From: Chloroflexota bacterium
GTDB lineage: Bacteria; Chloroflexota; UBA11872; VXOZ01
Reading direction: 5' to 3'
DNA: 64,000 nt
Assembly (NCBI GenBank): GCA_965261635.1
Contig: OZ253463.1
Coordinates: 353,164 to 417,163, forward strand
Part shown: piece by piece, positions 3,285 to 57,150 of the stretch
How positions within the stretch are numbered: position 1 is the stretch's first letter
How the letters are laid out: each line of letters starts with the position of its first letter
Program-made: the position numbers and the translations under genes
Notes under the pieces: model-generated
The model's input: the letters and a program-made list of their open reading frames with translations, nothing else
Told to the model about the DNA's origin: nothing
Database searches by the model: none

Positions 3285-4256
3285 ATGGCCGGCTTGACGC
3301 GAGTACAGCTCGATCACCTCGATGAACAAGGGTACGTGGTCGTAGACAACGTCCTCGATCCGGAGGAAGACCTAGCGCCGGTGATAGCGGAATACGCCGA
3401 CGTGCTGGACGGCATCGCCCGTGACCTCCATGCGGAGGGCGTCCTTGCCTCGACGTACGCAGACTTACCGTTTGATCAACGCCTCATTCAAGTATGTGAT
3501 GAGAGCGGCCAAATCTTCACCCAGGCATTCGACATCTCACTGCCGCAGAAAGCCGAGGGAGCCGACGCTCCCATGCACACGGGCGAGGCCGTCTTCAATC
3601 TGCTCGTGAACTCTCGTCTGCTTGACTGCGCCGAGAGCATTCTGGGGCCTGAGATTCTCTCCAACCCCGTACAGCATGTCCGCATGAAGCTGCCGCGTCA
3701 CGTCGTCCACGTGAAGAATCCTTCTAACCTCGCCGTAGCCGTGCCCTGGCACCAGGACAACGGCGTGGTGGTGGAAGAGGCGGACGAGACCGAGATGCTG
3801 ACGGTGTGGCTGCCCTTGAACGATGCCACCATCGAGAATAGCTGCATGAACGTCGTGCCCTACTCGCACCGGGACGACGAACTCGCAGTACACTGCCCGG
3901 GCGTCGGCGGCGTCTGGATACCGGAAAAGCTTGTGGACATTGCGAACGCCGTGCCGCTGCCCATGCAGGCGGGAAGCATTCTGCTCATGCACAGCAAGAC
4001 CATGCACTGCTCGTACGACAATAAGACCCAGGACGAGGTGCGCTGGAGCTTCGACCTGCGCTACCAGCCGATCGGTCAACCCACCGGTCGCCCAGTCTTC
4101 CCCGGGTTCGCGGCCCGCAGCCGCGCCAATCCTGAGTTAGAACTCCGCGATTCCACAACGTGGACCCAAATGTGGGAGGACGCCCGCCCGAAACTGGCCG
4201 TCTCTTCTACCGAGAACTTCAACCGCTGGTCCGCCGACCATCCGGTGTGTGCCTAA
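3285..4256 (+). CDS. PhyH family Fe(II)/2OG oxygenase, copy 2 (tandem paralog)
   Basis: The 323-aa ORF is collinear with copy 1. Its upstream ~80 bp and the downstream REP elements are duplicated as well. Confidence 0.75.
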   Translation: MAGLTRVQLDHLDEQGYVVVDNVLDPEEDLAPVIAEYADVLDGIARDLHAEGVLASTYADLPFDQRLIQVCDESGQIFTQAFDISLPQKAEGADAPMHTGEAVFNLLVNSRLLDCAESILGPEILSNPVQHVRMKLPRHVVHVKNPSNLAVAVPWHQDNGVVVEEADETEMLTVWLPLNDATIENSCMNVVPYSHRDDELAVHCPGVGGVWIPEKLVDIANAVPLPMQAGSILLMHSKTMHCSYDNKTQDEVRWSFDLRYQPIGQPTGRPVFPGFAARSRANPELELRDSTTWTQMWEDARPKLAVSSTENFNRWSADHPVCA

Positions 4257-4847
4257 GCAGGTTGGCGCTTACCTAGGGGCTCTTGCCGTATGGGACCGCG
4301 CATTCGCGGTTAGAAAATCCGCAGCGCGGAGGCTCGTCCCCCGGTTGAGACGCAAACTACGCAGTGTAGGAAGTTGGATTACCGCTTGCGCGGGAATAAA
4401 GGCATTGGATGCACGTGATTCTTGGCATTCACGCCACCCCAATATGCCTATTCCGCATCTGTAGCGCGGGGGCTTCTCCCCCGCTCCGGACCCGGACGCA
4501 AATCACGCGGCGCATGGAAGTTAGATTACCGCTTGCGCGGGAGTGACGAGCTTGTGCACACGGTTGGGAATGATGGCATCGGGCGCATCCGTCTGTCGGA
4601 TCTCATCACCATTAATTAGCGCGCACTCCGCAAGCGCATACGCCGTGCGTTTCCCGGTGCCTCGTCCCCGGCTCTGCGAATTCCTCATGCGGCCAAAGAC
4701 TTTGGATTCCGGGTCTGGGAAGCCATAGTATACACTTTGGGTAGCAGAATCATCCCCTCTCCCCGTGTGAGAGGGCTAGGGTGAGGGCAACAACAGCTTT
4801 CCGTGTCCTCTTCCTCCATGCACACCACGCTACGGGAGTAATACGCA

Positions 4848-6324: not shown

Positions 6325-6782
6325 GCCTACTACCCGCCTGGATGAACCTGACCGTTTCGTGTCAAAGGCTGAAATCCGACTTCACTTTAATACTGCGTTT
6401 ATACCAGAAAGCTGCAACAGGTGAATTGGTCGCGATAGTGCGAGATGAACACCTAGCTCCAAGAGCCGCTCGCCAGCCTGCAGACACCGTTACTCAAATG
6501 GTAATCTACTACGACGACCTACAAAGTGGAAATCTTCGTCCGGTTGCGCTCGTCCATCAGTACTTGCAGCCGGATGGGAAAATCGGCGGCAGTGGCCGAC
6601 CGGACCCGAAATGGCTGCGACTTCCCGATGGCTCGATTATTGCGGCAACGGAGTCTTCGTGAAGTGTCCGTTCGACCGCTTAGGTTAGTAGGGCGGGGCC
6701 TTGTGCCCCGCCTACGCGGTATCGTTCACCTACGCAATGCAACCGCATTCCGTGTTCGTGAGTGCGTTAGCGAGGCCACCTG

Positions 6783-7744: not shown

Positions 7745-8030
7745 AAGTCCGTTCATGCTGAAACCGCTTCACCAATTTCCCACTGGACCGTTCGCGCTAA
7801 GGCCGCCTCGCTAAGTCTCCGGTAGTCCGTTCGTGCTGAAACCACTTCACCACGTTCCCACTGGACCGTTCGTGCTGAGGCCGCTACGCTAGGTTTCCGC
7901 TAGTCCGTCCGTGCCGAGGCCGCTACGCCAAGTTTCCGCTGGACCGTTCGTGCTAAGGCCGCCACGCTAAGTCTCCGCTAGTCCGTTCGTGCTGAGCTTG
8001 TCGAAGCATGAACGGACGGCTTTGTACACT
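7745..8030. repeat. Tandem array of ~40-bp degenerate repeats of the CGTTCGTGCTGAG...GTCGAAG REP family
   Basis: About 7 head-to-tail units each begin GTTCGTGCTGAGG/AAGGCCGC. The units are contiguous with no unique spacers, so this is not CRISPR. Confidence 0.6.
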
Positions 8031-8361
8031 CGTCACATTCGAGTAAGGCATAACGCGGCGCCAAACTTGTAACCAGCGTACACCGCATGGCCGACGAACG
8101 AGCCGTCGTACGTGATCGCATGTCATGGCCGCAGGTTTCAAACCTGCGCTACTGGAAATAGCGGGCATGGCAGTTTTCGGTTCCCTGTCGCCGTGGACAA
8201 TGTGAGGGAACTAGCATGCCGCTCTGCCTGTCGCTCTTGATGGCAAGGAATTAAGGGCTCTCGTGGGACGGACAATTGCAGAGCACGGCACCGCGCCAAC
8301 AGTTGACGCGAGTCAGAGCAGCTTAGTACCATGAAATTGGTCGCGCATGCGGCGACCGCTT

Positions 8362-10893: not shown

Positions 10894-11117
10894 GGTTTCA
10901 CTCCTTAGTCGTTAGTCATGCCCTTAAGCTCTCTACGGTATTATAAGAACTAAGGGCGTTCTGCACTATAGGCACCATGCACCACACTATAATCAACGCG
11001 ACGCAGGTTACAAACCTGCGCTACCGGGTGCTACTTACCACGTAGATTTGAAAGATGCTTGACTCAAAAGTTGAATCCTTCCCTGCACAGGCGCGTGACC
11101 TGTGCAAACCGAGCACG

Positions 11118-23898: not shown

Positions 23899-24962
23899 GA
23901 TGGATTCGCTAGACTCACAAACGAAGTGCAACACCATGCTAAGGTGTTGCCATGGGAACACACTATCGTCAACTTTCCATTGAAGAGCGGTGTGAAGTGG
24001 CCCGACTTCACACCGCGGGGCACTCGTACCGGCAAATCGCTGCAGCTCTGGATCGCGCGCCATCGACCATTATGCGGGAGGTGAAACGGAATGGGTCTCG
24101 TACGCAGGGCTACAGAGCGACGTATGCCGCTGAACAGGCGTGGGCGCGGCGCTGGGTTGGCGGCAAGTTGGAGCGGGATGCTGCGTTGCGCAAGACCGTG
24201 CTGGAGTACTTGCAATGCGGCTGGTCGCCGGAGCAGGTGGCGGGACACATGGCGCAGAAAGCGGGAGCACCGGTCATCTCCCACGAGACCATCTATCGCT
24301 TCATATACGGACAGGTGGCGCGCACCAAGGACTATAGTTGGCGGCACTACCTGCCGCGAGGCAAGACGCAACGGCGACCCCATCGGCGCAGTGGGCGCAG
24401 TCCGGCCTCCTTCATTGCCAAGCGCCGTCCACTGGCGGAACGGCCCCAGGCGGCGGCCGACCGCCAAACCCCCGGCCACTGGGAGGCTGACCTGATGCTC
24501 TTTGGCAGAGGCGGCCACGCGGTGCTCGCCCTGCACGAGCGCCACTCGCGCTTGCTCATCGCTGCGCGCCAGCCCGGCAAGGCGGCAGACCCCATCGCCA
24601 GCACCATGTACGATCTGCTCGCGGTCTTGCCTGAAGCCTGGCGACAGACCGTCACCTTCGACAACGGCACCGAGTTCGCGCGTCATTACCGCCTCCATGA
24701 CTTGGGCATCCAGACCTTCTTCTGCGATACCCACGCCCCCTGGCAGAAAGGAGGCATCGAGAACGCTATCGGACGCATGCGGCGCATGCTGCCGCGCAAG
24801 ACCGACCTGGCGGAGATGTCTGCAGAGCGCTTTGCGCAACTTATCCAAGCCTACAATCACACCCCGCGCAAGTGCCTTGACTATCAAACCCCAGCCGAAG
24901 TATTTCTCAAACAAACGTTGCACTTGAAATGTGAATCCACCCTCCCGCTTTCGCGGGAATGA
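23899..24962. mobile_element. IS30-family insertion sequence (boundaries approximate)
   Basis: The transposase gene fills the element. Candidate imperfect TIRs are TGGATTC...AAGTGCAAC (23899-) and GTTGCACTT...GAATCCA (-24942). Adjacent REP copies obscure the exact end. Confidence 0.45.
23952..24962 (+). CDS. IS30-family DDE transposase
   Basis: N-terminal HTH (LSIEERxEI..L...G.S.R.IA..L.R..STI.RE..RN) and DDE region (HWEADLM, TFDNGTEF, PWQKG..EN.NG.LR). Confidence 0.85.
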   Translation: MGTHYRQLSIEERCEVARLHTAGHSYRQIAAALDRAPSTIMREVKRNGSRTQGYRATYAAEQAWARRWVGGKLERDAALRKTVLEYLQCGWSPEQVAGHMAQKAGAPVISHETIYRFIYGQVARTKDYSWRHYLPRGKTQRRPHRRSGRSPASFIAKRRPLAERPQAAADRQTPGHWEADLMLFGRGGHAVLALHERHSRLLIAARQPGKAADPIASTMYDLLAVLPEAWRQTVTFDNGTEFARHYRLHDLGIQTFFCDTHAPWQKGGIENAIGRMRRMLPRKTDLAEMSAERFAQLIQAYNHTPRKCLDYQTPAEVFLKQTLHLKCESTLPLSRE

Positions 24963-25200
24963 CGGGACAATGCTCGACCGGCGAGGGGCAATGACGTACT
25001 GCATTACGGCAGGTAACATCCACCGTGGGCAAAGGAGAATTAACGTAGCGTGGGGGCTTGTCCCCTGCCTCCTTACACGCTCATTAAAAGGGAAAGGCCT
25101 GCAAGATAGATTCCCGCTTTTTCGGGAATGACGGACCTACACGAAACCCTTTAGCGGATGAGGATGCCCCGCCGCACGAAGGGCAAAGGAGAATGCGCAC

Positions 25201-27196: not shown

Positions 27197-27574
27197 GGCA
27201 AGAGTTAAGGAAATGCTACAAGTCTAATGCCATGAGCTTTACCCGAACCGTTCGCCCTGAGCTTGTCGAAGGGCCGAAGGGCGAACTGGTAGTAAGACCA
27301 AGTCTGAGTAGAGGCGCTCAACTCCCCGTTCGTGCTTAGACAGGTGACTTGGCGTAGCTACCCCGGCACGAACGGGATAACAAAACCCAACCACTACAAT
27401 GCAACTAGAATTGGCAAAGGCTCCCATGCACCCGCAGGTAGCGCAGGTTTGTAACCTGCGCAAAGCCAAGGAATGAGCAATCCAGGTAATCACCTTTAGA
27501 CAACCGGGCGAATGTGTTGGGGAATCGCCCGCACATTCCATGTCGCTAGCGCCAACGAGAGAGGGAGAAATGTC

Positions 27575-29080: not shown

Positions 29081-30601
29081 CTATTCCCACTCGATGGTCG
29101 CTGGGGGTTTGTTGGTGATGTCGTAGACCACGCGGTTGACGTGGGGGACTTCGTTGACGATGCGGCTGGAGATGCGCGCCAGCACGTCGTGGGGGATGTG
29201 GGCCCAGTTGGCGGTCATGGCGTCATGGCTCTCAATGGCGCGCAGGGCGACCAGGTGGTCGTACGTGCGTTCGTCGCCCATCACGCCGACGCTCTGCACG
29301 TTAGGCAGCACGGCAAGAACCTGCCAAAGTTTTTCATAAAGCCCGGCGGCGCGGAGTTCCTCGGTAAGAATTGCGTCCGCCAGGCGCACGATTTCCAGTT
29401 TCGCGGCGGTCACCGCGCCCAGCACGCGCACGGCCAGACCCGGCCCCGGAAACGGGTGCCGCCAGACAAGCTCGTGTGGCAGCCCCAACTCCTCGCCCAC
29501 ATTGCGCACCTCGTCTTTGAAGAGCGTGCGCAGCGGCTCGACGAGTTGCAGGCGCATGGTTTCCGGCAAGCCGCCCACGTTGTGGTGGCTTTTGATGCGG
29601 GATGCGGCTTTCGAATCCGGCGCGCGGCTCTCAATCACGTCGGAATAGATCGTGCCCTGGGCCAGGAAGTCCACCGGCGCGTGGCGCGTAGCCTCTTCCT
29701 CGAACACGTCAATGAACGTCTCGCCGATGATGCGCCGCTTCTTTTCCGGATCGGTGACATCCGCTAACGCTCCTAAAAAAAGCTCGCGGGCATCCACGCG
29801 CCGGACCGGAATGCCGAGTTGTGTGAGGCTTTCTTCCACCTGCTCCGGTTCGTTGAGCCGCAATAGGCCGTTGTCCACGAACACGTTAATGAGCCGGTCG
29901 CCAATAGCGCGGTGCAGGAGCACCGCCGCCACGGTGGAATCGACGCCACCGGAAAGCGCCAGGATAACCCGCTGCGCGCCCACCTGGCTTTGAATCTGCG
30001 CCACGGCTTCATCGATGAAAGCGGCAGGGGTCCAATCCCCGCGCAGGCCGCAGACCTCAAAGAGGAAGTTGCGCAGAATTTCCATTCCTTGGGGCGTGTG
30101 CGCCACCTCCGGGTGAAACTGAATGCCGATCATGCCTTGCGCGTTTCCCATGGCGGCGATAGGCGAATTGGCCGACGATGCCAGCACGTCAAAGCCCGGC
30201 GGCAGTGCCGTAATATGGTCGCCGTGACTCATCCACACGTCCTGTTCGCGCGCGATGTCGGCAAAGACACCGGCTGACTGCTGCGCATGGATCATAGCGT
30301 GCCCGTATTCGCGCCTGTCGGCGGGGGCCACACTGCCGCCCAACGCCTGGGCCATGAGCTGCATGCCGTAGCAGATTCCCAAGACCGGCAGCTTGCCCTG
30401 CCAGACGAAGGGCTGCGGGCGCGGCGCGCCCGGCGCGTAGGCGCTGGCCGGCCCGCCGGAGAGCACCAAGGCCCGCGGATTGAGGGCACGCACGGATTCC
30501 TCGTCGGCGTCGTAGGGCATGAGTTCCGCGTAGACGCCGCACTCGCGGATGCGGCGCACGATCAGCGGGCTGTACTGTGAACCAAAGTCGAGCACGACCA
30601 C
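29081..30601 (-). CDS. guaA: GMP synthase (glutamine-hydrolysing)
   Basis: N-terminal GATase (VLDFGSQY, catalytic Cys in GICYGMQ, HPE), ATP-PPase SGGVDS P-loop, and a C-terminal dimerisation domain ending PATIEWE. Start placed at the GTG at 30601; the 582-aa ORF reaching 30829 adds a low-complexity S/E/P-rich extension encoded by REP repeats. Confidence 0.85.
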
Positions 30602-31021
30602 GCACTCGCGGGTCTTGGCGGCAGGAGAAGATGGATGCCGCGCCCCCGCAGGGGGCGAGCTTTCGCGGGAATGACGGAGGGAGGACGCTTCGCTGGAGTT
30701 ACGGAGTGAGGACTCCTCGCTGGAATGGCAAGGTACGGACTTTTCGCCAGGATGACGGGGCAGGAGTCCTTCGCCGGATTCAGGGGAAAAGGGCTCTGCC
30801 GGGGTCTCGGAAGATGCAGAGGTCTTCAAATGACGGTACTCCTTGTATCAATGCAGTTTACCCGCGTAGGCACCAGTCTTGTCCCCGCGGCACCGAAAGC
30901 GCGTCGGAGGCACGGGCTACTGCTAGCGAATTCGGCAGACATCCAAGCGGGGGACACTACAGTTCTAAGCCGAAGCGCGCCGCAATCGCGGGCTTACGAT
31001 CGGATACGGCGCAGGCCGTTT

Positions 31022-31849: not shown

Positions 31850-32444
31850 GCGCCGATCTCTCCTCTTCTTTTTATCGTTCGTGTAATGATCAAAAGCACG
31901 TTATTCTCATTCGATTATAGACTCCGCGGGGTGTGACGTGCTTCAAGCGCGCGGCCTCTGAATGACTTTGTCTGCCCGTACGTCCTATTCTGTAGCTTCT
32001 CGGTCATGCTAATACGCCAGGTAGGGCACCATCGACGATACGAGGGTCCAGCGGCAACGAGACTCTTCTGTCTTACGCACAACATGCCCACAATTAGATT
32101 CGGAGCGGGGGACAAGCCCCCGCGCTACGGTAAAGCGGTCAAATGGAATGCGCGATTGAGAGTGCGAGTGAAGCCGATACCGTGCATGCTTCGACAGAGC
32201 CTTGGTGAAACCACCTCAGCACGAATGGCTTGTGGGCACAGGTTGGCACAGCTTGCAGAAAGATGCGCGCGAAGCGGAACCTTTTGTGCTTCGACAAGGG
32301 CTTCGCGCAGCACTCAGCACGAACGGATTCTTGCCTTTTCCGTTCGTGCTGAGCCTGTCGAAGGGCAGGTCTACACAGAGCGATGTATTTATGAGACAAG
32401 TTCTAGCGACTTTCGGAGAAAAACTTCACGGCCGAAGAATCGCA

Positions 32445-45016: not shown

Positions 45017-45310
45017 TTGCTTGTCCCCCGCCTCTCCGGCATTGTGTCGTGGCGGCGGAACAGTAACCGTTCGTTCTGAGCCTGTCGAAGGATGAACAGG
45101 GGCTTGTCCCCCGCCTCTCCGGCATTGTGTCATGGCAGCGAAATAGTATCCGTTCGTCCTGAGCCTGTCGAAGGATGAACGGGAGGCTTGTCCCCCGCTC
45201 CTCAGCACCGTGTCATGGCGGCTGAACAGTATCCGTTCGTCCTGAGCATGCCTATCCTGAGCATGCCGAAGGGTCGAAGGATGAACGGGGCTTGTCCCCG
45301 CTTCTTGGCA
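45017..45310. repeat. Tandem array of three ~85-bp composite REP units in the hisA-hisH intergenic region
   Basis: Each unit is gcttgtcccccgcctctccggcattgtgtcatggcggc...ccgttcgtcctgagcctgtcgaaggatgaacgg. The second half is a palindrome (CCGTTC...GAACGG) of the dispersed CGTTCGTGCTGAG/GTCGAAG family. Confidence 0.55.
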
Positions 45311-47713: not shown

Positions 47714-49537
47714 ATGTATTTTCTAAAGCCCTCACCTAGAATCTCAGACTTTGACAATTGCGCCTGGGAAGAGGCGGTTGATTCAGCCTATGCGAAGAAG
47801 TGCTCAGCCTACTTTGAGTCTTTTAGAGACAAGATTACAGAAACAGCTGAAAGAGGAGATGAGCAACAGCAAAACGTATTCACGGTAATGTGGGCTGCTA
47901 CTTCACTTCATCTCAACAATCCTTCCGACGAATCTAACCCGTTTTGTCCAATTGCGACTGGTACTGGTTTCCGGTTTGCAGAAGTGGATGATTTTACGGA
48001 TGAGCATCTAGAGGTCTTTGGTAAGCTAATCTCAAGAATCAAGGATCCAGAACTACGTGCGCGCATCGCGGACATCGTATGGGTACGGAACCGCAGTCAC
48101 AAGGTAGCAGAGCAGGCAGTTGGCGCGTACTTGGAATCTGCAGGAAGATTAGAAGACACGGATGTGCCCGAGCCACCGTGCATAGACAGAATAAAACGTG
48201 CCGTTACCCTAGCGGTGTTGCACGGAAGAAAAACGCAGATGTTCAAGCAGGTCATAGCACACATTGAAGATACCCTCGAAAGACACAAAGAGAACGACCC
48301 CTCGTATTTGTCCGCAGAATTAATGAAAATGTTGCTAGAAAAGAAGGTGGGAGATGGTGCGACGTACGCGCAGCTTGCAGAAAGGCATGCCATCGCCGCA
48401 GAAAGTGACGAGGACTGGTATAGACCTAAGACTTACTTGGAGTTGCAAGCTCGCTGGCTCGAACGTGCGAAGGACAATACGGGCAGCAGAGCAGCACACA
48501 TTAGAGTGGCAGAGCAATACGAGCACGCGGCAAGAGATCTAGCAAACCGAGCACGACCAGACTACCTAACGGCAGCGGAGCTCCTCAAGAGCGCCATTCA
48601 AGCCTATCAGCGCATTGGCGGAGAAGAGGAACGTATAGAGAAACTGCATCGAGAACTCCTGGAATACCAGCGCAAGGGAACAGGCCAAATGGGACGAGTC
48701 TCTGCGGAGATCCCGATAGACGACTTGAGTGCATCTGCGATTAACGCAGTGAAGGAAAAGCCAAAAAGTGAAGCAATTCGTGCACTGGCTTTGATTGATG
48801 ACCCTTCTTACCTTGGTTTTCTGCGCCAGCACGTTGAACAGGAGAAGGAAGATTTTCCTTTGCTACATATTCTGCCCTGGATTCAGCAAGATGCATCAGG
48901 GCGAACACTCGGTTCTGTTCCATCGTCACTCTCGGATAGCGCGGAAGATAAAGCGGCTGCAACCCATTCTCACTTACTGAGACATGCAAGTCTAATGCGC
49001 TCGCTGATGGTACAAGCTCGCATTGAACCAGCACGGCGACAGATTCATCAAGAACACAGTATGTGCGAGCAAGACTTTGCACCATTCGTTGCTGACAATC
49101 CCTTCGTGCCGGAGGGCAGAGAAACGCAGTATGTCCGCGGTCTCCACGCTGGCCTAGAGGGCGACTTCGAAATTGCAGTCCCTCTTCTGATCCCGGAAGT
49201 GGAGAACTCTATAAGGCATGTTCTGTCTCTACGCGGAGTGGTCACTTCAGGCCTGGATTCAAAAGGTATTCAAAGAGTTTACGGATTGGGGAAATTGCTC
49301 CATCGTCCTGAATTGAAGAAAATCTTGGGCAACGACATAGCTTTTGACCTACAGGGCCTACTGGTTAAGTCGGAGACAGGGGTGGGAGACAATCTTCGGA
49401 ATCGAATGGCGCATGGCCTGATGGACGACAAGGATTTCTTTAGAACAGACGCAATCTACCTTTGGTGGCTGGCGCTTCACCTGCTCGTTCGCTTTCAAAT
49501 TGCACGTGATTCTCGTGTTGGTCAGAGCCAGAGCTAG
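47714..49537 (+). CDS. Large hypothetical protein with a C-terminal HEPN-like Rx4H motif (GDNLRNRMAHG)
   Basis: A 607-aa, mostly alpha-helical ORF transcribed divergently from the MTase-HNH gene. The C-terminal ~120 aa carry an R-N-x-x-A-H-G motif, characteristic of HEPN RNase active sites in Abi-type proteins. Confidence 0.5.
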   Translation: MYFLKPSPRISDFDNCAWEEAVDSAYAKKCSAYFESFRDKITETAERGDEQQQNVFTVMWAATSLHLNNPSDESNPFCPIATGTGFRFAEVDDFTDEHLEVFGKLISRIKDPELRARIADIVWVRNRSHKVAEQAVGAYLESAGRLEDTDVPEPPCIDRIKRAVTLAVLHGRKTQMFKQVIAHIEDTLERHKENDPSYLSAELMKMLLEKKVGDGATYAQLAERHAIAAESDEDWYRPKTYLELQARWLERAKDNTGSRAAHIRVAEQYEHAARDLANRARPDYLTAAELLKSAIQAYQRIGGEEERIEKLHRELLEYQRKGTGQMGRVSAEIPIDDLSASAINAVKEKPKSEAIRALALIDDPSYLGFLRQHVEQEKEDFPLLHILPWIQQDASGRTLGSVPSSLSDSAEDKAAATHSHLLRHASLMRSLMVQARIEPARRQIHQEHSMCEQDFAPFVADNPFVPEGRETQYVRGLHAGLEGDFEIAVPLLIPEVENSIRHVLSLRGVVTSGLDSKGIQRVYGLGKLLHRPELKKILGNDIAFDLQGLLVKSETGVGDNLRNRMAHGLMDDKDFFRTDAIYLWWLALHLLVRFQIARDSRVGQSQS

Positions 49538-49585: not shown

Positions 49586-51343
49586 TCAACCCACTTCAGA
49601 ATTCGCGCGGTCGTCTCTAGCAAAGAACAGCAGCACGAACACGGCTAAGAATGTGCCGAGGAGCCAGAGGCGGGGGATTTCCGCAGTGACCCAGAGCAGG
49701 CCGGGGACGAGGTAGAGCAGGCGGCGGCGGTGGGGGAGCGCGAAGAGGAAGAGCGCGGCCCAGCCGAACAGGAGGTAGCGGACGTGGATAACCGGCAGCG
49801 TGAGGATGTAGAAGAGCCCGGCTTTGGCCAGCGCGCGGCGGTGGCTGGGATCGAACATCACCAGGATTGCGAAGAGCGCGTTCGCCAGGCCCACGTAGCG
49901 GTTGTCGAGCGCATTTAGCCACGCGGGGGCAGACGCGCCGAATGCTTGGTACATCTCCTGCACGAGGAGCAGCGGCTCGCCGCGGTCCAGCAGGTGTCCG
50001 CCGAGCGCCCAGCGGAAAGCCGTCAAGTCAACGGCGGCGTACGGTACTGCGATCAGTCCCAACAGACCGAGCGACGTGAGCGCGTAGAGGCCGGCGTCCT
50101 GCACGCCGCGCCAGCGCAGGTACCAGAAGAACGCCACAATGCCGGCAATGCCGAACTCCAGGCGCGTGGAAGCGGCGAGGGCCAGGAAGATGCCGGCCAG
50201 CCAGGGCTTCTCCCACCGGGCCACGGCCAGCACGAAGAAGAGCAGGGCGACGGCGTGGCTCTGCGCGTTATCGATGGTGGCGGTCAGCAGCCAGGGGTGC
50301 AGGTACCAGACGGCCGCGGCGACCAGCGCCACAAGCAACCCCAGCCGGGGCGCAGACAGTGAAGCTTCACCATCGGATTCGCTATCCGCGTTACCGGCAA
50401 CTCCCCCTGAGAAATGCCGTTGCGCTTGCAAAGCCAGCGCATAGATGACAATCGTGCTCAGCACGTCTGCGGTGTAGGTAGGAATCTTGATGGAGAGAAT
50501 CTGCGGCCAGTCGAAGTGGTACGCCGCGCGCCAAATGGGCGCCATAATCAAATTGAACGTTGCCAGTTGGTCCTGCGGCCAGGGCAGGTCGCGGGCCAGG
50601 TGGTAGTAAAGGAAGTGAGTCTTCGTGAAGACCATGCCAGCGTAGAAATAGAAGTGCTGCACGTCGCCGCCCTCGAGGAGAAGATCACGCAGGCGCAGCG
50701 CCAGACCCGCCACAAGCAGCACCACGAAAGCGCTATGCAAGCGTAAGAACTGCCCTACCCGATGCCAACTCACCAAGAGTGGATTTCCGCTTTCGCGGGA
50801 ATGACGGAATGGCGTTGTCCGGCGGAAAAGCGTCGCCAGGCGGAAAGGCGTCGCTTGACGAAGGAGCATTGCCAGGCGCAAGGGCGGCCAGCGGTCGAGC
50901 GCAGGCGCCGTATCGAGCACCCATACCTGCAGAGCGAGCGTAATTCCCACGATCACGTATGCGGCAAGCATTTTCGGCAACGCAACTTGCCAGAGCAGGT
51001 AGTGGGTGAAGTCGGTGAGATAGAACAGTGCCAGACCCGGTGCTCCCAGCCAAAAGGGCGCAAGAGACGAGTTGAATGCGCGCCCAAGCGCGGGGCCCTG
51101 CGCTCCCATGCGTCGGAGCACCCACCAATAGGCCCACTGCCAGCAGATAACGCCAACCGGTGCAAGCGCAATCGCCAACAACCACGGCAGCGACGCTTGC
51201 CACGGCCAGGCGCGACCCACAAAGAGCATTGCGAGAAAAGGGCCCGCGCAGACTCCGCGCAGAATAGCGAGAACCCCTTCTCGCCCTAATAGGAAGGCTT
51301 GAGGCTGCAAAAACTCGGAACTCTGGAGGCGAGAATCACTCAT
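49586..51343 (-). CDS. Polytopic integral membrane protein (DUF2029/glycosyltransferase-like), with an in-frame REP insertion
   Basis: The 585-aa ORF has more than 12 predicted TM segments. Codons around 50780-50880 (LRQATPFRLATLFRRTTPFRHSRESGNPL) are encoded by a dispersed REP copy plus an 18-bp tandem duplication, so the ORF may be two genes or carry an inserted segment. Confidence 0.55.
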   Translation of the reverse strand: MSDSRLQSSEFLQPQAFLLGREGVLAILRGVCAGPFLAMLFVGRAWPWQASLPWLLAIALAPVGVICWQWAYWWVLRRMGAQGPALGRAFNSSLAPFWLGAPGLALFYLTDFTHYLLWQVALPKMLAAYVIVGITLALQVWVLDTAPALDRWPPLRLAMLLRQATPFRLATLFRRTTPFRHSRESGNPLLVSWHRVGQFLRLHSAFVVLLVAGLALRLRDLLLEGGDVQHFYFYAGMVFTKTHFLYYHLARDLPWPQDQLATFNLIMAPIWRAAYHFDWPQILSIKIPTYTADVLSTIVIYALALQAQRHFSGGVAGNADSESDGEASLSAPRLGLLVALVAAAVWYLHPWLLTATIDNAQSHAVALLFFVLAVARWEKPWLAGIFLALAASTRLEFGIAGIVAFFWYLRWRGVQDAGLYALTSLGLLGLIAVPYAAVDLTAFRWALGGHLLDRGEPLLLVQEMYQAFGASAPAWLNALDNRYVGLANALFAILVMFDPSHRRALAKAGLFYILTLPVIHVRYLLFGWAALFLFALPHRRRLLYLVPGLLWVTAEIPRLWLLGTFLAVFVLLFFARDDRANSEVG

Positions 51344-56974: not shown

Positions 56975-57150
56975 TAGTAGCGCAGGTTTGTAACCTGCGT
57001 CCATTGCCCATACGGTAGCTTTGCAACCTGCGACCATTCCCCGTACAGCAGCTTTGCAACTTTGATCTGCAGTAGTTCAGTTTTGCAGCTTGTGTCCATC
57101 CTCGTAGCGCAGGTTTGTAACCTGTGCCTGCCGGTTGCAGGCGCGATCCT
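56975..57150. repeat. Tandem array of four GCAGGTTTGTAACCTGC-type palindromic units
   Basis: tagcgcaggtttgtaacctgcg / tagctttgcaacctgcg / agctttgcaactttgatctgc / tagcgcaggtttgtaacctgtg. Single copies of the same palindrome occur at 8131-8147, 11003-11019 and 27443-27459. Confidence 0.55.

Follow-up and report, generated by a model that had tools for sequence, protein, structure and literature searches.

This analysis concerns a short palindromic repeat that lies inside two protein-coding genes of a Chloroflexota bacterium, in a stretch of 64,000 nucleotides (contig OZ253463.1, positions 353,164 to 417,163 of the forward strand, assembly GCA_965261635.1) that is referred to below as the window and is numbered from its first letter. 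The first gene is a single open reading frame (ORF) of 585 codons on the minus strand (49586-51343). It encodes a membrane protein composed of an N-terminal membrane module found in this lineage only (codons 1-150, 50894-51343), an arginine-rich linker predicted to be a coil (codons 151-197, 50753-50893) and a glycosyltransferase-like core with a predicted GT-C fold (codons 198-585, 49589-50752). One repeat unit occupies positions 50780-50807 in the linker, beside an array of four tandem 18-bp units. The second gene is guaA (582 codons, minus strand, 29081-30829), in which another unit and an array of four tandem 27-bp units lie between the start codon and the catalytic domain. The repeat is a repetitive extragenic palindrome (REP) of the CGTC-tagged class, and the observations described below suggest that it is an old and inherited part of the membrane-protein gene.

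The REPs of the CGTC-tagged superfamily carry the sequence CGTC at one end, a stem of 8-9 bp, a loop of 4-5 nt and a 3-bp tail (PMC3733652). The unit in the membrane gene, CCGTCATTCCCGCGAAAGCGGaAATCCA, has this architecture. Read on the minus strand, positions 50780-50807 are parsed as c CGTC ATTCCCGC GAAA GCGGaAAT CCA, that is, the CGTC tag, an 8-bp stem (ATTCCCGC/GCGGGAAT) closed by a 4-nt loop (GAAA or GCAA, both of which occur among the window's own copies), and a 3-nt tail. The full 8-bp stem and the 4-nt loop are found in the close relatives L002, L004 and L005 and in metagenome copies. The window's unit retains seven of the eight stem pairs, one having been lost through a change of ggg to gga. 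In 77 aligned metagenome copies and in the copies of the window, conservation ends 2-3 nt past the stem (CCA/CCAG), where the tail of the class would end. Family CGTC-1 of this superfamily is the dRS3 element of Neisseria (Di Nocera, De Gregorio and Rocco 2013, PMC3733652). Only in the loop region does the core of the window REP depart from the master sequence of the Neisseria REP, ATTCCCGCGCAGGCGGGAATC (bioRxiv 10.1101/2021.07.10.451892), and a gonococcal locus contains CGTCATTCCCGCGAAAGCGGGAATC (PMC7593972).

The initial annotation had placed the repeat in frame inside the membrane ORF as the peptide FRHSRESGNP, and this reading is confirmed codon by codon on the minus strand (ttc cgt cat tcc cgc gaa agc gga aat cca). 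Direct reading shows that the 28-nt element is free of stop codons in all three sense frames and in two of the three antisense frames; the RHSRESGNP frame is the most hydrophilic of the sense frames. A scan of the window against Rfam found four tRNAs only, and the repeat is thus not a curated RNA family.

Like other CGTC REPs, the element is present in several dispersed copies. The 23-mer TTCCGCTTTCGCGGGAATGACGG at 50785-50807 has further copies at 24943 and 25112, with one and three mismatches, respectively, making three matches against 0.00 expected from shuffled sequences. A looser palindrome pattern adds copies at 2796, 4379 and 4526, and a profile made from the REP copies finds seven significant copies in the 64 kb (about zero expected), starting at 2787, 4370, 4517, 24934, 25103, 30659 and 50778. 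The one at 30659-30676 is a half copy inside guaA. Four of the seven copies are fully intergenic and lie downstream of + strand genes. These are the copy at 2787-2815, which has a TTGC loop and follows a PhyH-family gene; the copies at 4370-4401 and 4517-4548, which are 147 nt apart in equal orientation and which, like the first, were found by both the pattern and the profile; and the copy at 25103-25134, found by the 23-mer match and the profile, upstream of an ABC-transporter ATPase gene. One copy (24934-24965, + strand) overlaps the last codons and the stop of the upstream ORF, and two copies are inside genes. This dispersed, mostly intergenic placement downstream of genes is the arrangement of the CGTC class. 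The statement in the initial annotation that the repeat normally sits between genes holds for the copy at 25103-25134 but not strictly for the one at 24943, in which (24943-24965) an IS30-like transposase ORF (23952-24962, HTH_38 and rve domains) has its final six codons and its TGA stop.

The CGTC end reads GACGG on the + strand in the copies at 24934 and 25103 and in the guaA copy, and GACG in the copy at 4517; it is degenerate in the copies at 2787 (TTGTA) and 4370 (TAAAG). All seven copies share one orientation, on the + strand, and the GC skew profile of the window gives no usable signal to account for this uniformity. The five intergenic or 3'-overlapping copies are co-oriented with + strand genes. 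The two intragenic copies are in minus-strand genes, so that the transcripts of these genes carry the opposite sense of the repeat.

The family of the 585-residue protein is small. Only 19 relatives, full-length or partial, were found in 5.8 billion sequences, and a profile search of 1.84 billion representatives gave 25 matches in total. Genome records place the family in metagenome-assembled genomes (MAGs) of Chloroflexota with chromosomes of about 3.5-3.7 Mb. The comparison of loci comprises the window and 14 fetched Chloroflexota MAG loci (15 in total), which are 65-92% identical. The open frame runs uninterrupted across the repeat segment in all 15 loci, and length differences always amount to whole codons. 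The ratio of non-synonymous to synonymous substitution rates (dN/dS), calculated by the Nei-Gojobori method, is 0.20-0.34 in the N-terminal module (codons 13-155) and 0.14-0.31 in the core (codons 201-570). These low values in both halves mean that both are under purifying selection in this one frame. The dN of the linker is two to three times that of its flanks. No start codon on the 3' side of the repeat is conserved across the compared loci: the candidate starts after the REP are TTG and GTG in the window and TTG only in the close relatives, and there are none in the clade of about 70% identity.

The N-terminal module contains invariant motifs, such as RAWPWQA, and hydrophobic helices were detected in it. 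For this module, no remote homologue turned up in the profile search of the 1.84 billion representatives. The remote homologues of the protein (E-values of 1e-21 to 1e-4) match profile positions of about 180-555 only. They are free-standing proteins, and their first residues align just after the linker. Scans of the 585-residue protein against Pfam and NCBIfam gave no matches; among the remote homologues, one passes the GT87 threshold of Pfam and two PMT_2 matches are sub-threshold. A profile made of the C-terminal 400 residues and the remote homologues matches GPI mannosyltransferase 1 in the PDB (E=2.9e-7). The AlphaFold model of the core (388 residues, calculated with the remote homologues) has a pLDDT of 80.1 and a pTM of 0.82, and all 15 top matches to it in Foldseek have the GT-C fold, with probabilities of 0.94-1.0 and TM-scores of up to 0.63. 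The GT-C matches include PIG-U, PIG-M, ALG3, ALG12, ALG6, STT3, ArnT, PimE and AftD. As modelled, the core adopts a polytopic GT-C fold. The first transmembrane helix (TM1) of the core is followed by the motif E224-G225-x-D227, in which E224, G225 and D227 are invariant in the family. The aspartate is invariant across the remote homologues too (D42, alignment A3). The protein thus has the conserved acidic residue in the first extracytoplasmic loop after TM1 that is a feature of the GT-C class, and its catalytic role is putative.

The REP is positioned in the arginine-rich linker, just before TM1 of the core. The loop formed by residues 144-197 has nine K/R residues and three D/E residues, residues 164-187 are modelled as coil by AlphaFold, and the predicted amino-acid sequence of the linker includes ESGNPLLVSWHR. 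No other part of the protein evolves as fast or varies as much in length as the linker. The N-termini of GT-C proteins are typically cytoplasmic. By this analogy and by the positive-inside rule, the linker is probably cytoplasmic. The continuous frame in the 15 loci, the purifying selection on both flanks and the absence of a conserved start after the repeat support the proposal of the initial annotation that the REP is tolerated in frame in a loop.

Given where the homologues begin, the repeat lies at the boundary of an older core and a module that was added in front of it. The two may have been joined across a REP that was once intergenic, or the REP may have entered later. The genes upstream of two free-standing remote homologues neither support nor exclude a fusion of two neighboring genes. 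A histidine kinase gene precedes the homologue P0027, and P0025 is preceded by an unannotated 756-residue gene and then a tRNA-like gene; a BLASTP comparison of the N-terminal module with the 756-residue protein was negative.

Orthologues lacking the segment, which the initial annotation had thought might be found by alignment, do not occur in the comparison: all of the orthologues, including those of only 65% identity, have a REP-derived segment that aligns at this site. The close relatives L002, L004 and L005 have a perfect REP unit, CCGTCATTCCCGCGAAAGCGGGAATCCA, from which the window differs only by the ggg to gga change, which is synonymous. In the clade of about 70% identity, one 18-bp unit is followed by tttcccgtGCAAgcgggaat (SRASGN), and L007, a member of this clade, has an extra stem mismatch. 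The flanks CCGTCAT and AATCCACTC are kept in L012, where the palindrome itself is lost. In L015, the peptide SREPGK (tcg cgt gaa ccc ggt aaa) is kept and the stem is abolished by synonymous changes. Only remnants of the REP are left in L013, L014 and L008. A 42-nt in-frame insertion is found within the REP loop of L011 (the locus of P0006, 86% identity; codons about 170-184). This insertion carries a palindrome of its own, tcgatacg-g-cgtatcga, and no copy of it was found in the window.

L013 and L014 lie on one contig (ERZ25069412 ctg755560) and are tandem paralogues, P0016 followed by P0012. As both of them have a decayed REP-derived linker, the duplication took place later than the acquisition of the repeat.

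The calculated energy of the RNA hairpin is -12.7 kcal/mol in the window and -16.5 kcal/mol in the close relatives with the perfect stem. When compared with shuffled sequences, the z-scores are -2.3 to -3.1 in the window clade; there is a weak excess in the 70% clade and none elsewhere. The pattern among the orthologues fits one old element that was vertically inherited and has been decaying at different rates. If there is any selection, it would be weak and would act on the peptide and not on the stem.

The 18-bp duplication described in the initial annotation is present, the two 18-mers being at 50821-50838 and 50839-50856, but the array in fact comprises four units (50801-50872, minus strand), not two. 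Their six-codon translations are AMLLRQ, ATPFRL, ATLFRR and TTPFRH. The self-identity of the array at a lag of 18 nt is 36/54, which is the maximum of any 72-nt stretch in the window (background mean 15.1, standard deviation 3.5). Tandem Repeats Finder, run on 50600-51000, did not detect the array, which is evident only in the codon register and by the lag-18 autocorrelation. Four units are found in the window and its closest relatives, two in P0005, P0008, P0015, P0021, P0006 and P0009, and one in more distant clades. Three types of two-unit allele occur, AMLFRQ+ATPFRH, AMLFRR+TASFRH and AMLFRQ+ATLFRH. As hybrids whose breakpoints differ, they represent independent contractions. The number of units presumably changes by slippage or by unequal recombination between direct repeats.

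The guaA gene offers a parallel. Its close homologues carry the domains PF00117, PF07722, PF02540 and PF00958 and are named GMP synthase in the sources. The domain order is that of GuaA, with a GATase domain followed by the ATP-pyrophosphatase and the GMP-synthase C-terminal domains; an 11-residue motif is found at residues 77-87. The ORF starts with a TTG codon at 30827-30829, and a Shine-Dalgarno sequence, AAGGAG (30839-30844, minus strand), is located 9 nt upstream of it. The REP unit (30627-30677, minus strand) is read in the frame RHSRES..., and an 18-nt hairpin, tcgccccctgcgggggcg (30641-30658), splits its right arm. The four tandem 27-bp (nine-codon) units at 30650-30757, also on the minus strand, stem from the REP's left half. 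For this array, Tandem Repeats Finder gives 30662-30727 with a period of 27 and 2.4 copies, and the identity at a lag of 27 nt is 53/81. The initial annotation noted correctly that the REP family extends the ORF ahead of an internal GTG codon (near 30599-30601), which is preceded by 76 codons containing the REP and the 27-bp array. It considered this extension spurious, and here the comparison of four genomes (the window, L018, L016 and L017) points the other way.

AGGAG is found 9-10 nt before the TTG codon in all four genomes, the other upstream DNA being unrelated in L016 and L017. A leader peptide, (K/I/E)T.AS..TP.EP, is common to the four, and in each of them the REP is read in the RHSRES frame and has its right arm interrupted by the 18-nt hairpin, which in L017 has the version tcgccccgcgccggggcg. 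The number of codons before LDFGSQ is 85, 85, 49 and 76; the number of 27-bp units differs, and it always does so in frame. This frame is the only one that is stop-free in all four genomes. The internal GTG has nothing resembling a Shine-Dalgarno sequence ahead of it.

It is possible to suppose instead that translation starts at the internal GTG and that the REP array is merely open 5' untranslated sequence, the extension being an artefact of annotation. The extension is of low complexity and evolves fast, with nine non-synonymous and seven synonymous changes in 75 codons between the window and L018 (16 changes, dN/dS about 0.47). (A dN/dS value for the GATase part against L018 was discarded, as L018 is frameshifted and the comparison was ungapped.) It also lacks the RVATSGDIEVSTYLEIA motif of other Chloroflexota GuaA proteins, and N-terminal intragenic REPs may often be misannotations according to the 2013 survey (PMC3733652). 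The start signal retained next to unrelated upstream DNA, the conserved leader peptide and the array lengths of 85, 49 and 76 codons, all in the sole stop-free frame, speak against such an artefact, as does the bare GTG, which makes this explanation unlikely. The N-terminal extension of guaA is probably genuine, as far as can be judged from the four sequences. Extensions are also the rule in the listed set of 120 GuaA relatives, the majority of them from Chloroflexota-type MAGs: most have an extension, commonly of 40-55 residues, that precedes the catalytic domain, and many of these carry the RVATSGDIEVSTYLEIA motif that is lacking in the window lineage.

In many GuaA proteins of Chloroflexota and Dehalococcoidia (P0046-P0162), the N-terminus is extended by about 50 conserved residues that include the motif RVATSGDIEVSTYLEIAKE, and in the window lineage an extension of this type is replaced by the REP-derived sequence. 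REP units in the two genes seem to attract nested insertions, as seen in the loop of L011 and in the right arm of the guaA unit.

The repeat is widespread outside the window. The exact 27-mer was found in more than 120 JGI metagenome contigs with GC contents of 34-72%, and in some of them, e.g. L040, L075 and L091, it forms inverted pairs 25-60 nt apart. A survey of genic positions covered 84 copies in 80 metagenome contigs. Long stop-free spans around these copies (e.g. a 1076-codon ORF in L021) mostly look like antisense or 5'-extension artefacts and were not counted. Two copies, on unrelated contigs, are in frame in clearly real genes. In L066 (9556-12318), a 920-residue HsdR-like protein (type I restriction subunit) has RHSRESGNP inside its EcoEI_R_C domain. 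In L082, an inverted REP doublet (SFPRKRES...DSRFRGNDG) splits the Phos_pyr_kin domain of a ThiD-like kinase. The three single-unit intragenic cases, namely the GT-C gene, guaA and the HsdR-like gene, are all in the RHSRESGNP frame. This sharing of a hydrophilic frame is suggestive, the cases being very few. REP-encoded peptides (FRGNDG, IPAKAGI and others) were not found in the literature.

By combining these observations, the history of the membrane gene can be described in some detail. The 585-codon ORF is one gene in which a CGTC-tagged REP lies in frame at the seam between the lineage-specific N-terminal module and the GT-C core. The REP would have been present at this site already in the common ancestor of all known family members, and would since then have been a tolerated relic whose palindrome survived whole in some lineages while decaying in others. 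The short direct repeats in the 5' flank would expand and contract in whole codons, presumably by slippage or unequal recombination. In guaA, a REP and its 27-bp half-copies would likewise have come to lie between a conserved TTG-initiated leader and the catalytic domain. The joint explanation of a single gene carrying an inherited and tolerated relic is assigned a probability of about 0.8. The genic REP copies look immobile and vertically inherited, and the REP of the membrane gene resembles the long-standing relic of a junction rather than something inserted recently into a complete protein. Its peptide would be neutral.

Several points weigh against this explanation. Between the window clade, with its perfect palindrome, and the 70% clade, with a nearly perfect one, dS is 0.6-1.4, and such retention could reflect constraint or homogenization and not neutrality. 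Seventeen of the 19 core positions are identical (p about 0.07 by a binomial estimate), in a segment that is too short for a test. None of the orthologues lacks the segment, so that insertion as an event is putative. Five family members (P0010, P0015, P0019, P0021 and P0023) are frameshifted or truncated; they come from low-coverage assemblies, and their defects are provisionally taken here to be assembly errors. The full-length AlphaFold model, based on 14 close sequences, is poor (pLDDT 44), so that the topology rests on hydropathy, charge and the GT-C analogy. Translation of the REP segment is itself inferred from the sequence.

A broader interpretation of the same history is that REPs are seams along which genes grow, the N-terminal module of the membrane protein and the GuaA leader having both been acquired across a REP that was originally intergenic. 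As a REP is stop-free in its sense frames, translation from a new start codon or from an ORF further upstream could continue through a REP in front of a gene and into that gene. The attached whole-codon arrays would then tune the length of the linker, and the shared RHSRESGNP frame would reflect selection for a hydrophilic, disordered linker. This generalization is regarded as doubtful.

A second possibility is that the hairpin is kept for a function of its own at the RNA or DNA level, as a translational pause, a signal for mRNA processing or stability, or the site of a repeat-specific enzyme. The stem is perfect or near-perfect in two clades that are separated by a dS of about 0.6-1.4, the loops GAAA, GCAA and GUGA are all of the GNRA type, a cgc to cgt change still pairs as G-U, and the folding z-scores in the window clade are -3.1 and -2.3. 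However, the stem is lost in L012, L013, L015 and L008 and is weakened in L007 and in the window, and the 42-nt loop insertion is tolerated in L011, in a sample that is too small for statistics. In L015, the peptide is conserved and synonymous changes destroy the palindrome, which is the opposite of what selection on the structure predicts. A role of the hairpin is hence quite improbable.

It is about equally improbable that the REP of the window clade is not ancestral but was placed there by re-insertion at a hairpin hot spot or by gene conversion from other REPs. The window clade does match the family consensus over at least 28 nt, both flanks included. Nested insertions have taken place in the L011 loop and in the right arm of the guaA unit, and both the GAAA and the GCAA loops exist among the window's own copies. 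Nevertheless, vertical descent with few point changes explains every state. L011 has the GCAA loop of the 70% clade, and L012 has the flanks CCGTCAT and AATCCACTC of the window clade. Neither target-site duplications nor other junction scars are present.

The initial annotation also suggested that the ORF might consist of two genes. A pair made up of a gene for an N-terminal membrane protein and one for a glycosyltransferase, with a REP in the gap and joined by chance or error into a long ORF, would suit the normally extragenic position of REPs and the distant core homologues that stand free and start exactly at the end of the linker, but it is rejected as highly improbable on the sequence comparison: the linker has a stop codon in none of the loci and changes length by whole codons, no start after the REP is conserved, no terminator-like site is predicted at the REP, and the N-terminal module is selected in the same frame with no stop of its own, so that ribosomes translating it must run on.

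Several features of the window are described here as observations beside the main subject. The gene adjoining the 3' end of the membrane gene varies among the genomes, and the site looks like a variable spot. The neighbor is a DUF7380+DUF4209 protein in the window (47714-49537), a hisH-like GATase in L001/L002 (4948-5652), an unannotated 208-residue protein followed by a DUF3644 protein in L011, and an EMARD_N protein in L015.

The window also contains two other families of dispersed hairpins, GTAGCGCGGGGGCTTCTCCCCCGCTCC and GTAGCGCAGGTTTGTAACCTGCGC, which start with GTAG and look like GTAG-tagged REPs. Their sites are 2738-2764, 4461-4487, 6688-6714 and 25045-25071, and 8126-8149, 10998-11021, 27438-27461, 56977-57000 and 57104-57127. 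With these hairpins alongside the CGTC REPs, the genome carries both classes. In four places (2738-2815, about 4320-4400, 4461-4545 and 25045-25134), a GTAG hairpin is paired with a CGTC REP, with a spacer of about 45 nt separating the two. Two of the spacers are partly similar, which suggests a composite unit of about 90 bp. The tandem PhyH-family dioxygenase genes at 1709-2677 and 3285-4256 have about 85% DNA identity, and since a GTAG and CGTC repeat pair follows each of them, the duplication included the repeats. The window also has a 39-bp tandem array of at least five copies and an 83-bp array of three copies (7746-7995 and 45019-45267). Both are built around the dispersed motif TCCGTTCGTGCTGAGCCTGTCGAAGG, which occurs in seven copies (7982, 27247, 32339, 45066, 45149, 45232 and 56893), the one at 32339 being within a 183-residue ORF.

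The main relevance of these results is to annotation and to the natural history of selfish repeats. Neither of the two long ORFs, the membrane gene and guaA, should be split or trimmed. A palindrome called extragenic can persist for long inside essential or conserved genes, here in orthologues down to 65% identity, and half-copies flanking it generate in-frame length polymorphism in protein linkers. Chloroflexota, a phylum that is absent from the published listing of CGTC REPs, also has REPs of this type.

The arrays can be compared to intragenic variable-number tandem repeats (VNTRs) that arise by slipped-strand mispairing. Similarly to these, they consist of whole-codon units (18 and 27 bp), their copy number varies among close relatives, and hybrid units mark different breakpoints. 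In contrast to slipped-strand VNTRs, the units are derived from the flank or the left half of a REP, are found in linkers of housekeeping and envelope enzymes and not of surface antigens, and show no evidence here of phase variation.

The element shares its REP core with the REPIN population of Neisseria and so resembles the REPIN-RAYT systems (Bertels and Rainey; Neisseria group 2 RAYT). Unlike REPINs, in which inverted REPs lie within about 130 bp, the window has no inverted pair. Among the ORFs beside the REP copies, Pfam identified only the IS30-like transposase; no search was aimed at RAYT, and the window is 64 kb of about 3.6 Mb.

The Rickettsia palindromic elements (RPEs) are likewise palindromic repeats translated within functional proteins at permissive surface or linker positions, and RPE-4 and RPE-6 are themselves CGTC-tagged (PMC3733652). 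The present element is in frame in two unrelated genes. It differs from the classic RPEs, which are about 100-150 bp long and encode a conserved peptide of about 30-50 residues, in being a single 28-nt unit (nine residues) with short tandem half-copies, and it is thus not of the RPE-1 type; its likeness to the short RPE-4 and RPE-6 is one of class only. The host also differs, being a free-living Chloroflexota lineage.

The closest comparison is with the CGTC REPs themselves, which have been reported in Proteobacteria, Chlorobi, Bacteroidetes, Spirochaetes and Thermotogae but not in Chloroflexi, and for which no dedicated transposase was found (PMC3733652). Besides the host phylum, the arrangement differs: CGTC REPs are mostly head-to-head dimers, and the copies in the window stand singly or in direct pairs (spaced by 147 and 169 nt), with no head-to-head arrangement in the 64 kb. 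The latter is a tendency of the class and not a requirement. Intragenic GTAG and CGTC REPs encoding 20-82 residues have been known since 2013, and such insertions were proposed to lie in flexible linkers or loops (PMC3733652). Intragenic REPs and RPEs having been described in 2000-2013, the present case is a real but unexceptional instance of something already known, seen here in a new phylum and with no new mechanism. What it adds to the published CGTC REPs is a comparative record of long persistence, in which the intragenic copies are traced through orthologues to 65% identity and are accompanied by arrays that vary in copy number, always in frame.

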